From assembly GCF_030013595.1 (NCBI RefSeq), contig NZ_CP122768.1: DNA of 64,000 nucleotides. One strand, 5' to 3'. The notes below the pieces were generated by a model that was given only the letters and a program-made list of their open reading frames with translations, did no database searches and was not told where the DNA came from. A program made the position numbers and the translations under genes. The stretch comes from Escherichia coli (GTDB taxonomy: Bacteria > Pseudomonadota > Gammaproteobacteria > Enterobacterales > Enterobacteriaceae). The first letter of the stretch is position 1. Each line of letters begins with the position of its first letter. Positions 57,196 to 64,000 of the stretch are shown piece by piece.

Positions 57196-57201
57196 TGTGA
57201 A

Positions 57202-57237
57202 AGGCAGGCAACGTTAATAGTTGTCTGCCTTTGTTTT
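57202..57237. terminator. Bidirectional hairpin terminator between aldB and the convergent nuclease-like gene
   Basis: aggcaggcaacgttaatagttgtctgcct followed by ttgtttt. Confidence 0.6.
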
Positions 57238-57760
57238 AGTTGTATAAAGCGGCAGTCGCTTTTAACTCATCGCTGAAAGAATAAATATCATCGAGAGATT
57301 CAATAGGATGGCGGGTTTCGTTTTTCTCTAAGTCAAATAAACCAATATATTTTTGATTTCGATTGAAATGTAATCTACAGAGTGGCTTTCGATTATTGTC
57401 ATCTACAAGTATACCAAAATAGCTTTTTGTATCTCTGTGGACTATTCGTGGTGCATCAAGCACTACGCGAACTATAGCTTTAACAATATGAAATCCTTCA
57501 AGTTCCTCCATAGTAGTAGCAATATCGGTTTCTTCTTTATTAATACATTCTACTTCTTCATTGTGTGAATTCGAATCAATTACAGATAATGACCCACCAC
57601 CTATTGCCGATTTCAATCTTTCGTTTATTTGAGAGTTAATATATTGATTGGCAGCTTTCTTTGTTAATTTTGCAAACGTATCTTTTACCTTTTGTGTTAA
57701 CATACCTTCATAAATTCTTGCTGCAAAGAATTTTACAAAATCCTCTTCAGGATTATTCAT
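57236..57760 (-). CDS. Uncharacterized 174-aa ORF, in frame with and 18 nt downstream of the HsdR_N-like ORF (likely its C-terminal half)
   Basis: Same frame as 57779..58315 with one TAA (57779..57781) between: ...GELKYVSLI*KVLHAQMNNPEEDF...; no recognisable RBS before its ATG. Confidence 0.55.
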   Translation of the reverse strand: MNNPEEDFVKFFAARIYEGMLTQKVKDTFAKLTKKAANQYINSQINERLKSAIGGGSLSVIDSNSHNEEVECINKEETDIATTMEELEGFHIVKAIVRVVLDAPRIVHRDTKSYFGILVDDNNRKPLCRLHFNRNQKYIGLFDLEKNETRHPIESLDDIYSFSDELKATAALYN

Positions 57761-57778
57761 TTGTGCATGGAGAACTTT

Positions 57779-58315
57779 TTAAATTAAACTAACATATTTT
57801 AATTCACCTGCAGCATTAATTATTGATTCCAAATCAAATGCTGATTTAGTAAGCTTCTTTATCTCGGGAACAACTGTTTCATCTAAGTCAAGTAGATCTA
57901 TCTCAAGAAATGGTTTTTCATCCATTTTATTAGGTGCTTCTAAATCAGTAAAAAATTTATAAACTTGTTCATTGGTTAGAATAGATATTCTTGCATTTGT
58001 TACATGAAAGTATCGAAAAAGCTGTGAAGCATGATTTATATTTAGAGGATCGCCAATTTTTTTGCATTCAATGAGAATCTGAACCTCGCTATTTTTTAAG
58101 ATTGCATAGTCAATCTTTTCACCTTTCTTCGTTCCAATATCGCATACAAACTCTGGGATAACTTCGGTAGGATCAAAGACATCATAACCTAACACATTGT
58201 TAATAAACGGCATTACGAAAGCATTTTTGGTAGCTTCCTCCGTTTCAATGACTCCGGCTTGTTGTTTTATTTTTGCGGATAATGAATTCAGCTTATCTAT
58301 AAACTCCATAGACAT
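57779..58315 (-). CDS. PD-(D/E)xK nuclease-fold protein resembling the N-terminal domain of type I restriction R subunits (HsdR_N-like), N-terminal ORF of 178 aa
   Basis: EEATKNAFVMPFINNVLGYDVFDPTEVIPEF...GEKIDYAIL...VQILIECKKIG (D...E-x-K) ...QLFRYF; strong RBS aaggag 5 nt upstream of ATG; AT-rich. Confidence 0.65.
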   Translation of the reverse strand: MSMEFIDKLNSLSAKIKQQAGVIETEEATKNAFVMPFINNVLGYDVFDPTEVIPEFVCDIGTKKGEKIDYAILKNSEVQILIECKKIGDPLNINHASQLFRYFHVTNARISILTNEQVYKFFTDLEAPNKMDEKPFLEIDLLDLDETVVPEIKKLTKSAFDLESIINAAGELKYVSLI

Positions 58316-58787
58316 TATAACTCCTTATATATATTTAATAAAAATGCGTTTTATAAAAATATAGAAAATATTTATATATTAACGCTTTATCATTGGTCAT
58401 AGTTAATGTATAACACACAAAAAATAATGTTTGCACATTGTAAATACAATGGTGAAACAAACTTGATATTTATCAAGAAAATAAAACAATGTCTTTTATT
58501 GGTTGTTTTAAACGTTCAATGAATACGAGTTGGAGCTATAGCAAGACTAGCTTCGATATCGCATGGATAATCTAATACAGATTTTTTAACACCTAATACT
58601 ATGAGTTATATGTAAATTGCGAGCATCCTCGCATCTTTTCAACAAGTTACTGCACACCGTTATTCTCCTTCCGAGCGGCATTCCTGAGTCAACTTTATCC
58701 CCCTGACGGCCCATATAAATCGCGCTATCGTGATTGTTATCGCTAATTGTGTGTGTATCGTGTGTATAATCATGGAAGGGCAGGGAT

Positions 58788-58973
58788 GTGAAAAGTGCAG
58801 ACGTGATCGCCATCCTGAAGCAGCATGGCTGGGAACATATTCGAACCCGTGGCAGTCATCATCAGTTCCGCCACCCTGTTCATCCGGGTCTGGTGACGGT
58901 TCCGCACCCTAAAAAAGATATTAAGCCCGGTACGCTGGCGCAAATTGGGCGTCAGGCTGGTTTAACATTTTAA
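58788..58973 (+). CDS. hicA: HicA-family mRNA interferase toxin
   Basis: 61 aa from GTG: (M)KSADVIAILKQHGWEHIRTRGSHHQFRHPVHPGLVTVPHPKKDIKPGTLAQIGRQAGL; candidate -10 tataat at 58764..58769. Confidence 0.85.
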   Translation: MKSADVIAILKQHGWEHIRTRGSHHQFRHPVHPGLVTVPHPKKDIKPGTLAQIGRQAGLTF

Positions 58974-58989
58974 AATTTCAGGAGGCAAT

Positions 58990-61436: not shown

Positions 61437-61446
61437 CTTGTGCTCC

Positions 61447-62847
61447 TTAAGGCTGTACATGACGCTGACGCAGGTCGCTAGCAATGCGTGACATCATAGG
61501 GTTATTGAGTTTGCAAAAGCGGATCGCCCCTGCCAGCAGCAGGTGGAATAGCGCAGGCAGTAATGTTTCCATCGCCGCGATCCCGCCAAGCGAACTGGTG
61601 GTCTGGTTTTCCACGCCTAGCTGGTAGGCGACAAAAATAAACAGCAGGCTGATGATCCCGGCGCTGGAGGCCCAGGCCAGCTTGATGAAAAACAGATTGA
61701 AGGCGAAGTTCATGCCGGAAGAACGTACGCGGGTTTTCCACTCGCCGTAGTCATCGGCAAAGGCCATCAATGAGAAGTGCAGTGGCAATGTGAAGCCAAG
61801 AATCACGCCATTACCGAGGATCACCGCCAGCCACAGCGTTTGATAAGCCGGGCCGGAGGGCAGGAACCACATCAACACCGCCAGCGCGGCGAGGAGCAGG
61901 TTGGTGTAGTAGTAAATTTTGACGGTATCGAAACGTCGCGTTAACGGGCTGACAATCACCGAGCCGATAATGGAGGCGAAGGTGACCATAGTGAAGAACA
62001 GCGACGTGTAGCCCGTACTGCCTTGTAAGACGTAGGTAATAAAGTACATATACCCACCGCCGCGAATATTAAAGACGTTAATCAGCAGGAAAGACATGAC
62101 CAGCATCAGCAGCAGTTGGTCGTTGTTCCGCAGCCCGGCAAGATGTTCGCGCAGGGTAAATTTCCCCATTGTGGAGAGCGGCACCCGTTCACGAACCCAG
62201 AAGAAACAGCACAGTAACATCACCACGGCAATGGCGCACAATACGCCGACGCCCAGTTGATAGCCGCGCGCGGCATTACCCTGACCGAAGAGATCTACCA
62301 TCCACGGTAAGCCTACCGAAACCAGAAATCCCGCCACGCCGCAGAGAACGAATCGCCAGGACTGGCAGGAGATCACTTCATTGTGGCGGGTGGTCATGGT
62401 GTTGATCAGCGCGCAGTACGGCACGTTGATGGCGGTATAACCGACTGAAAGGAGCAGGTAAGTGCCGAACGCCCAGGCGATTTTTACTCCCATGCTGGCA
62501 TCTGGCACGGTGAACGTCAGGATGCCGATAATGCCGATGGGAATGGCAATCCACAACTGCCACGGACGAAAGCGCCCCCAGCGACTTTGCGTCCGGTCGG
62601 CAATGACGCCCATCACCGGGTCGGAGATGGCATCAAACACGCGCAGTGCAATAAACAGCGTGCCGACCAGCGCCGGAGTTAAGCCAAAAACGTCGGTGTA
62701 GAAAAAGGTGAGAAAGTTCATGATCAGGCAAGTTATTACGGTGCCGCCTGCGTCACCCAGGCCGTAGCCTATTTTTTCCCGTACAGATAACGCATCGTCA
62801 ATTTTACCTTTAGCGATATCAGCGGCAGTAATCGGTGTAGAGGTCAT
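61447..62847 (-). CDS. Glycoside-pentoside-hexuronide (GPH) family cation symporter
   Basis: 466 aa, about 12 hydrophobic segments; GPH-type N-terminal motif [10 protein letters not shown]...DVFGL...[17 protein letters not shown]. Confidence 0.85.
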
Positions 62848-63072
62848 AGATATTCCTCGTGAATAGGGAGCAATTTTTAGTTTTATTGCAATGACCTGAT
62901 TAATTCTGCCGTGAACGGGAATATCAACAAGGCGAGAAAAGAGTAAAAAAAGGTGACGATTCCGACCTGAATTTAAAAGTGTGAAATGGATCAGGTGAAA
63001 TTAATGTTTTTGATTAATAATCAAAAGGTAATGTGTTTAATCATTAATGAATAAGCGGGAAATTACATATCA

Positions 63073-63888
63073 ATGCTCGAATTATCCATGACGTTACCGA
63101 TTAAAGTGCAAAATGGTGGATTATTTATTTCCCGTGGCGTAGGGAGGCATCCGGCAAGGCGGCTGGAGTCATGGGAAATTATCTTTGTCGAAAAAGGTCG
63201 ATTAGCGATTCAGGAAGAAGAGCGGATATTTCTGGTCGATGCGGGAGAGAGTTTATTACTCTGGCCGAACCGACAGCATGTTGGGGTAGAGGATTTTCCC
63301 GCCGATCTCAAATTTTACTGGCTGCATTTTGAGGTTAAAGCGCCGGATAGCGACCCGCGCTGGCTCACTCATCTTAGCGTGCCGCAACAAACGAAGGTTG
63401 CCGATCCGCAGGCGTTGGTGGCCCTGTTTCGCCAGTTCTTAAGCGAACAGGAAAAGCATCAACGCACTCCGGCGCTGGAGTTTATTGTGCTGCTGATTTT
63501 GCAGCAACTCACCCGTGACGCGCGTCTTGATGAACAGGCCGATGCCGCAGGTACCACGCTTGCCTGGAAAGCGCAGAAACTGATCCGCACGCAATATCAT
63601 CGCCCGCTTTCCACGGCGCTTTTAGCCCGCGAGCTGTACTGCAATGCCGATTATCTTGGGCGCGTCTATCGGCGGGTGTTTCATCTGACGTTAACAGAAG
63701 CAATCCATCGCCAGCGAGTGCGCGAAGCCGAAAAGCTGTTAATTAGCGAAGCGCGATCGCTCACGGAAGTGGCGGCGTTGTGTGGGTTTAATGACGTTGG
63801 CTATTTCCGGCAGATTTTTCGCAAACACACCGGTTTAACGCCAGCTGCGTGGAAGCGACGTTACAGCAAGGAACATATCAATTCGTAG
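63073..63888 (+). CDS. AraC/XylS-family transcriptional regulator
   Basis: 271 aa; C-terminal HTH TEVAALCGFNDVGYFRQIFRKHTGLTPAAWKRR; divergent from the transporter-hydrolase pair. Confidence 0.85.
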   Translation: MLELSMTLPIKVQNGGLFISRGVGRHPARRLESWEIIFVEKGRLAIQEEERIFLVDAGESLLLWPNRQHVGVEDFPADLKFYWLHFEVKAPDSDPRWLTHLSVPQQTKVADPQALVALFRQFLSEQEKHQRTPALEFIVLLILQQLTRDARLDEQADAAGTTLAWKAQKLIRTQYHRPLSTALLARELYCNADYLGRVYRRVFHLTLTEAIHRQRVREAEKLLISEARSLTEVAALCGFNDVGYFRQIFRKHTGLTPAAWKRRYSKEHINS

Positions 63889-63890
63889 TT

Positions 63891-63910
63891 CCGGGGCAAT
63901 GAAGCCCCGG
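63891..63910. terminator. Hairpin between the AraC-type gene and a convergent downstream gene
   Basis: ccggggcaatgaagccccgg palindrome. Confidence 0.5.
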
Positions 63911-63919
63911 CGTGAGGGA

Positions 63920-64000
63920 TTACTGCCCGTAATAGGCATTGGCCCCATGCTTACGCAGGTAGTGCTTATCCAACAGTTCGTTTTGCATCGCAGGGAGTTG
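63920..64000 (-). CDS. 3' end of an unidentified reverse-strand gene running into the window from beyond its end
   Basis: Reverse-strand translation ...QLPAMQNELLDKHYLRKHGANAYYGQ-stop; no family assignment from 26 residues. Confidence 0.3.
   Translation of the reverse strand, partial: QLPAMQNELLDKHYLRKHGANAYYGQ

Follow-up and report, generated by a model that had tools for sequence, protein, structure and literature searches.

A probably ancestral AraC regulator, GPH symporter and GH127 hydrolase module between aldB and sgbE of Escherichia coli

The interval between aldB and sgbE in a 64,000-nucleotide stretch of an Escherichia coli genome (assembly GCF_030013595.1, contig NZ_CP122768.1; the whole stretch is hereafter called the window) differs from that of E. 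coli K-12. With a probability of roughly 75%, we read it as an ancestral module for small β-L-arabinofuranosides, composed of genes for an AraC-type regulator, a GPH-family symporter and a GH127 glycoside hydrolase, joined by a hicAB toxin-antitoxin pair and an inactivated nuclease gene, with the K-12 arrangement derived by deletion. The interval spans ~6.7 kb (57196-63919), and both its ends lie inside the window, at the end of aldB (57195) and at sgbE (from 63920); selB, yiaY and aldB are the window genes upstream of it. These boundaries come from the annotation of a 99.9%-identical locus (L001) and from the sequence; the interval was also compared by blastn with K-12 and other E. coli, an alignment called for in a preliminary description of the window made from its sequence. 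The interval holds three independent things, namely the catabolic module, the hicAB pair and a low-G+C nuclease gene inactivated here.

All open reading frames of the interval have strong family matches in Pfam, and no NCBIfam equivalog was found for any of its proteins. The gene identities proposed in the preliminary description (nuclease-like, HicAB, GPH symporter, GH127 hydrolase with a CCPPN cysteine motif and divergent AraC regulator) agree with the Pfam matches and the positions of the reading frames (Table 1). Its seven genes become six, the frames at 57236-57760 and 57779-58315 being one gene split by an in-frame nonsense codon. The nearest complete genome, that of the pig isolate HCP5S3_I2, shows 5 differences in 9 kb. 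All five are non-synonymous. We do not take this as a sign of anything unusual, since two of them occur only in the other genome and it is not improbable that the remaining three, as recent mutations, should all be non-synonymous.

The hydrolase is predicted from its sequence to be a GH127 β-L-arabinofuranosidase. It matches PF07944 (374 bits, E = 9e-112), PF20736 (84 bits, 1e-23) and PF20737 (89 bits, 2e-25), all above cutoff, which cover the catalytic, middle and C-terminal domains and reproduce the three-domain architecture of the family, with an (α/α)6 catalytic domain and middle and C-terminal β domains. The closest solved relative is Geobacillus Ara127N (PDB ID: 4qjy), which matched at E = 1e-235 and is 55% identical across the 630 residues aligned, and HypBA1 (PDB ID: 3wkw) was matched by phmmer at E = 4.5e-152. 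In HypBA1, Cys417 is the nucleophile, Glu322 the acid/base and zinc is held by a (Cys)3-Glu site (PMC8106489). HypBA1 residues Glu322, Glu338, Cys340, Cys417 and Cys418 align with Glu318, Glu334, Cys336, Cys414 and Cys415 of the E. coli protein, for which we propose from this alignment that Cys414 is the nucleophile, that Glu318 serves as acid/base and that Glu334, Cys336, Cys414 and Cys415 form a Cys3-Glu zinc site. The candidate nucleophile lies within the ACCPPN motif singled out in the preliminary description, whose GH127 assignment is borne out by the three Pfam domains, the identity to Ara127N and the conserved catalytic and zinc residues. A hydropathy scan showed a hydrophilic N-terminus without a signal peptide, which places the hydrolase in the cytoplasm. 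In the nearest genome the hydrolase has exactly this sequence.

The symporter scored 327.9 bits against the TIGR00792 gph model (cutoff 231.35) and 244.7 bits against PF13347 (MFS_2, E = 1.8e-72), and none of the GPH equivalogs YagG, MelB and UidB in NCBIfam reached its cutoff. Hydrophobic segments run all along the protein in the hydropathy scan. The symporter stop codon precedes the GH127 ATG by 10 nt, with an AAGGAG Shine-Dalgarno sequence in between, and the two genes therefore form one operon, as had been supposed. The regulator, which is the common allele, matches PF12833 (HTH_18, 2e-19), PF00165 (HTH_AraC) and PF02311 (AraC_binding), all above their cutoffs, and thus shows a C-terminal double helix-turn-helix and an N-terminal cupin domain.

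Alignment of the control region between the regulator and symporter genes (62848-63072) across 12 species revealed conserved blocks, of which GTCGGAAT, TGATTATT, TCACA and CTTGTT are invariant from Escherichia to Pantoea and Mixta. The GTCGGAAT block (62959-62966) stands beside a conserved TTGTTG/CAGAAT pair, a candidate minus-strand promoter of the symporter operon with its -35 element at 62925-62930 and its -10 element at 62903-62908. TCACA resembles a CRP half-site; a fuller CRP-like site, TGTGA-N6-TCAGG (62980-62995), is found ~90 bp upstream of the likely start, and TGATTATTAAT (63014-63024) lies on the regulator side. From these motifs we infer both the site assignments and a layout like that of araBAD-type control, and we take the conserved blocks as candidate operators and promoter elements in a regulon that has so far gone unstudied. 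Shared with the araBAD/araC regulons of E. coli are an AraC-family regulator with a cupin sensor, divergent from its catabolic operon, and apparent conserved sites for an activator and CRP upstream of a weak -35 element. The regulator itself, in contrast, is only distantly related to AraC, reaching 61 bits against the AraC equivalog model, whose cutoff is 208.

Relics of the module persist in K-12 MG1655, where the order is aldB-yiaW-yiaV-yiaU-yiaT-ysaD-ysaC-sgbE and both ysaD and ysaC are pseudogenes. In blastn, window positions 59574-59763 matched ysaD at 89% nucleotide identity, and positions 63785-64000 matched ysaC and the end of sgbE. At the protein level, ysaD (b4649) corresponds to residues 559-621 of the hydrolase (87% identity) and ysaC (b4648) to residues 239-271 of the regulator (97% identity), both in the position they share with the window; the K-12 genes are remnants, and the window has the intact ancestral genes. 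The two surviving pieces (59574-59763 and 63785-63888) abut in K-12, which reveals a clean 4,021-bp deletion of window positions 59764-63784; the GH127 gene has also lost its final ~100 bp. By tblastn we could further detect an unannotated HicB relic in the aldB-yiaW spacer of K-12 (NC_000913.3 locus 10752-10823, matching window 59317-59429), which covers residues 110-136 over 28 codons at 75% identity with a 4-codon deletion, and suggests that hicAB was formerly present in a spacer next to which K-12 now has yiaWVUT in place of hicAB. The preliminary description correctly placed its genes outside the K-12 order, none of them being intact in MG1655. It had also named the presence of the module at this position in K-12 as a refutation, and here the answer is divided, in that the relics ysaD and ysaC do lie there and intact genes do not.

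Other E. coli show further arrangements. In O157:H7, where the yiaK-sgbE operon is deleted, the order is aldB-yiaWVUT-GH127-MFS-AraC with a yiaJ relic after it; EC28 has aldB, a frameshifted GH127 gene and then MFS-AraC-sgbE; NMBU_W05E18 reads aldB-hicAB-GH127-MFS-AraC-sgbE; and in UTI89 everything between aldB and sgbE has been lost, leaving the two genes 46 bp apart. In O157:H7 strain SS17 (L004 12408-12548), the AraC-type regulator gene adjoins the 3' relic of yiaJ, and the GH127 module is retained. Counted at a DNA coverage of at least 80%, the module is present in 2312 (43%) of 5426 complete E. coli genomes. The yiaWVUT block occurs in 3728 and stands beside an intact-length GH127 gene in 1254; hicAB is found at this site in 505, the nuclease gene in 188 and the whole window arrangement in 191. 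Rare among these is only the nuclease gene together with hicAB (~190 genomes). By subtraction rather than direct count, ~2,470 genomes are K-12-like and ~640 have neither yiaWVUT nor the module. The interval is thus a hotspot of lineage-specific loss and replacement. Comparative genomics related to inflammatory bowel disease has already described GH127 as patchily distributed across E. coli clades and as co-segregating with the invasiveness of adherent-invasive E. coli (AIEC) (PMC11879602; bioRxiv 10.1101/2021.10.19.464957).

Beyond E. coli, a scan with the GH127 protein, taking one genome per species, gave 80 loci that were kept and then searched by tblastn with the window and K-12 proteins. 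The symporter gene lies directly upstream of the GH127 gene in 73 of them, nearly all of which also have a divergent AraC gene. This triad usually sits between sgbE and aldB and occurs in ~70 other species of Enterobacteriaceae and related genera; the order sgbE-triad-aldB was seen in Citrobacter, Klebsiella, Raoultella, Enterobacter, Lelliottia, Leclercia, Kosakonia, Phytobacter, Pseudocitrobacter and Salmonella diarizonae, among others. In Pantoea the triad is found amid unrelated genes, which marks these three as the functional unit. The amino acid identity of the hydrolase falls with taxonomic distance, from 97% in other Escherichia through 86-88% in Citrobacter, 84% in Klebsiella and 80% in Enterobacter to 78% in Hafnia. 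What fills the space between the GH127 gene and aldB varies, yiaT/U/V/W, hicAB and the nuclease gene being combined in several ways, as in Enterobacter chuandaensis (GH127-nuclease-hicBA-yiaT-yiaU-aldB); hicAB and the nuclease gene recur at the same site in other genera (L025, L047, L051 and L065).

The G+C content of the module (53-57%) is like that of the flanking genes. The interval has no integrase, insertion sequence (IS) or other mobility gene and no tRNA, and a repeat search of 57100-59600 found neither direct nor inverted repeats on either side of the nuclease/hicAB segment or at the 3' end of the GH127 gene. Of the marks of a horizontally acquired island, namely atypical composition, mobility genes or repeats and absence from related genera, the GH127 module shows none. 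Synteny, the identity gradient, the flank-like G+C content, the lack of mobility genes and repeats and the K-12 relics together indicate that the module is ancestral and has been repeatedly lost in E. coli, rather than being a recent island. The designation of the interval as accessory content can be kept for the nuclease cassette, alone atypical at ~30% G+C, and has to be given up for the module.

Two observations concern other organisms. In Bradyrhizobium spp. (L078-L084), a GH127 protein 72% identical to that of E. coli is encoded without the symporter or AraC gene, and such an identity across classes hints at horizontal transfer. In one of these loci (L078 3615-7953), an S9 prolyl oligopeptidase gene immediately precedes the GH127 gene, a pairing that would suit the breakdown of hydroxyproline-rich glycoproteins. 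A contig labelled Chryseobacterium sp. 18061 (L030, CACSKA010000004.1) carries a locus of the enterobacterial type (AraC-MFS-GH127 at 85% and aldB at 94% identity) that closely mirrors that of Citrobacter sp. 18056 (L028), and looks like a wrong organism label or a contaminated assembly.

We propose that the regulator, probably with CRP, would activate the symporter-GH127 operon, and that the symporter would import a small β-L-arabinofuranoside, such as β-1,2-arabinobiose or a hydroxyproline-linked arabinoside, that other microbes have set free from pectin or from plant glycoproteins of the extensin type. Its cleavage by the hydrolase would then employ the nucleophile Cys414, the acid/base Glu318 and the Cys3-Glu zinc site, and the L-arabinose formed would enter the AraBAD pathway. 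Given the lack of a signal peptide and the coupling to a symporter, only small imported β-L-arabinofuranosides are plausible substrates; and as no GH121-type secreted enzyme is encoded in this E. coli locus, the substrate would have to be released by other organisms. That plant glycans or glycoproteins are themselves used, as first suggested, is therefore too broad a claim for a cytoplasmic, symporter-coupled hydrolase, and we favor scavenging of small breakdown products. We infer the substrate, the induction logic and the reliance on other microbes, the last of these by analogy with HypBA2/HypBA1 of B. longum (PMC8106489).

HypBA1 of Bifidobacterium longum (PDB ID: 3WKW/3WKX) resembles the E. 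coli hydrolase in its three-domain GH127 architecture, in the Cys nucleophile, Glu acid/base and Cys3-Glu zinc site conserved between the two, and in being an intracellular enzyme supplied by a dedicated importer. The importer, however, is an ABC transporter with a β-Ara2-binding protein in B. longum and a GPH symporter in E. coli, where the locus also lacks an extracellular enzyme of the GH121 (HypBA2) type and the regulator is of the AraC type; by phmmer, HypBA1 is more distant from the E. coli hydrolase than the Geobacillus enzyme. The latter, Ara127N of Geobacillus stearothermophilus T6 (PDB ID: 4QJY), has the same CACCPPN motif and differs in its Gram-positive source. It lies within a large arabinan-utilisation cluster with ABC transporters.

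On the evolutionary side, these findings correct the direction of change, K-12 being the degraded state, and explain ysaD and ysaC as the two ends of a GH127-transporter-regulator module kept by most enterobacterial genera. They also point to a widely conserved and biochemically uncharacterised cytoplasmic GH127 system in Enterobacteriaceae, which could let E. coli scavenge β-arabino-oligosaccharides released by other gut microbes. Otherwise the locus is an instance of ordinary comparative-genomics variation.

Several points weigh against an ancestral module that now serves β-L-arabinofuranoside use. The symporter of this strain carries P410L (window 61619) where all 73 orthologues from other species have a proline, and, judged by this conservation, uptake and with it the module may be impaired in this strain. 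That E. coli lineages have lost the module repeatedly points to weak selection. GH127 also includes specificities other than arabinofuranosidase, carrageenan-related enzymes being described among them (PMC5698469), and no enzymatic, transport or expression data for any enterobacterial member were found in the searchable literature.

It is unlikely, if worth considering, that the module in this strain is a decaying remnant without present function. Such decay would account for P410L, for the adjoining nuclease gene being already inactivated, for the frameshift in the GH127 gene of EC28 and for the deletion of the module in more than half of the complete E. coli genomes. All three module reading frames are, however, full length, the nearest genome encodes the very same hydrolase, the regulator is the common allele, and one substitution in a transporter does not establish loss of function.

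We consider it quite unlikely that the hydrolase acts on something other than a β-L-arabinofuranoside (another furanoside, a sugar of the aceric acid type, or a synthetic or dietary disaccharide) and serves a different nutritional niche. The polyspecificity of GH127, to which the carrageenan enzymes and a match to the NCBIfam 'aceric acid hydrolase' model belong, leaves room for this, as do a Salmonella GH127 gene reported to be up on lactulose (PMC13304739) and the GPH symporter partner, where HypBA1 is served by an ABC transporter in Bifidobacterium. The aceric acid model, however, scored 455 bits, less than half its 950-bit cutoff; the lactulose response may be mere CRP-dependent derepression, in a gene that need not be the orthologue; and the enzyme is much closer to HypBA1 and to Ara127N, which its depositors named a GH127 β-L-arabinofuranosidase, than to the solved GH127 chains 6ex6, 5mqo and 5opj, and keeps the complete set of catalytic and zinc residues. 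There is an outside chance that the triad imports and cleaves a different, still unrecognised gut or plant glycoside, in which case its lineage-specific presence might contribute to differences between niches or pathotypes, as with the co-segregation reported for AIEC. That some E. coli acquired the entire 6.7 kb horizontally, as an accessory island, is very improbable and, for the module, already largely refuted: the lack of intact copies in K-12, the few genomes with the exact arrangement and a low-G+C cassette that is swapped for ~100 nt in otherwise identical loci would fit an island, but the module is syntenic between sgbE and aldB in dozens of genera, its composition is that of its flanks, integrase, IS, tRNA and direct repeats are lacking, K-12 retains relics, and even hicAB and the nuclease gene recur at this site in other genera.

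Table 1. Features of the aldB-sgbE interval and its borders, in window coordinates.
Feature	Position	Strand	Basis and remarks
aldB	55657..57195	+	Left boundary, core gene; RefSeq annotation of the 99.9%-identical locus L001
Hairpin, 13-bp stem	57200..57232	none	Terminator scan and sequence; between the convergent aldB and nuclease genes
Stand-alone PD-(D/E)XK (HsdR-N-like) nuclease gene, 359 codons, pseudogene here	57236..58315	-	
AT-rich spacer	58316..58787	none	Sequence
hicA toxin gene, 61 aa	58788..58973	+	Pfam HicA_toxin 1.9e-23; RefSeq WP_000833473.1
hicB antitoxin gene, 136 aa	58990..59400	+	Pfam HicB_lk_antitox 8e-36
GH127 glycoside hydrolase, 654 aa	59472..61436	-	Three GH127 Pfam domains; PDB 4qjy and 3wkw matches
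4,021 bp deleted in K-12-type genomes	59764..63784	none	blastn of the window against NC_000913, K-12 annotation, tblastn
GPH-family (MFS_2) sugar:cation symporter, 466 aa, first operon gene	61447..62847	-	Pfam MFS_2, TIGR00792
Divergent regulatory region, 225 bp	62848..63072	none	Alignment across 12 species and sequence
AraC/XylS-family regulator, 271 aa, cupin ligand-binding domain	63073..63888	+	Pfam HTH_18, HTH_AraC, AraC_binding
GC-rich hairpin CCGGGGC-aatgaa-GCCCCGG	63891..63910	none	Sequence; between the convergent AraC and sgbE genes
sgbE 3' end (annotated araD)	63920..64000	-	Right boundary, core gene; L001 annotation; 95-97% identical to K-12

The nuclease gene is inactive here: relative to the nearest genome, AAA has become TAA at 57779-57781 (K179*; the intact allele is WP_000061477.1), and a strain-specific G116E change (window 57969) replaces a glycine invariant in 115 diverse homologues. 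The encoded protein belongs to a large family (more than 1,200 50%-identity clusters at E < 1e-30) in which D69, E83 and G116 are invariant and K85 nearly so. An HSDR_N Pfam match (2e-11) identifies a PD-(D/E)XK nuclease domain in the first of its two domains, and the C-terminal domain has no recognisable match. An AlphaFold 2 model built on a 115-sequence alignment, which came from a representative search, reached a predicted local distance difference test (pLDDT) score of 92.5, against only 41 with a 14-sequence alignment. A sequence search of the PDB with the protein gave no match, and PADLOC returned a weak type IIG restriction endonuclease match only. The gene neighbourhood of a distant homologue gave no further information. 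We rejected the RefSeq name of type I restriction endonuclease (HsdR) as a misnomer. The HsdR subunits of type I enzymes have a motor and hsdM and hsdS partners; in contrast, the protein here has 359 residues, none of the 115 family members has a helicase domain, the superfamily 2 (SF2) helicase/translocase motor is lacking, and the gene is flanked by aldB and hicA with neither hsdM nor hsdS beside it.

At ~30% G+C, the nuclease cassette looks like an insertion, the sole part of the interval to do so. In NMBU_W05E18, ~100 nt take the place of positions 57199-58614. At most, it is this cassette that behaves as a mobile or insertable element. Homology to K-12, O157, EC28 and NMBU_W05E18 stops at 57196-57198, immediately to the right of aldB, and the hairpin between aldB and the nuclease gene lies just past this point; it is likely a bidirectional terminator and part of the strain-specific cassette. 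On the other side, homology to one such locus (L006) resumes at 58615, and the right part of the AT-rich spacer (58615-58787) is common to genomes with hicAB that have no nuclease gene, and probably contains the hicAB promoter region. An Rfam scan of 54000-64000 at E ≤ 0.1 gave no match.

The hicA and hicB genes lie on the same strand, 16 nt apart with the toxin gene first, and match PF07927 (82.7 bits) and PF15919 (123.3 bits), respectively. By these matches and this layout they are a canonical type II toxin-antitoxin pair; PADLOC gave no match for HicAB. Between hicB and the GH127 stop codon is a 30-nt element with a short GACGC/GCGTC hairpin (59448-59477). In K-12 and O157 an inverted copy of it follows closely after aldB, the yiaWVUT block of O157 being inserted beside the element (~59428), and it may be a recombination or terminator mark.

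A second variable spot lies beside the interval, where a Fic-family gene is found between yiaY and aldB in O157:H7, EC28 and UTI89 (L004 1068-2363, L005 4870-6165 and L087 3012-4307, respectively) and is in neither the window nor K-12.

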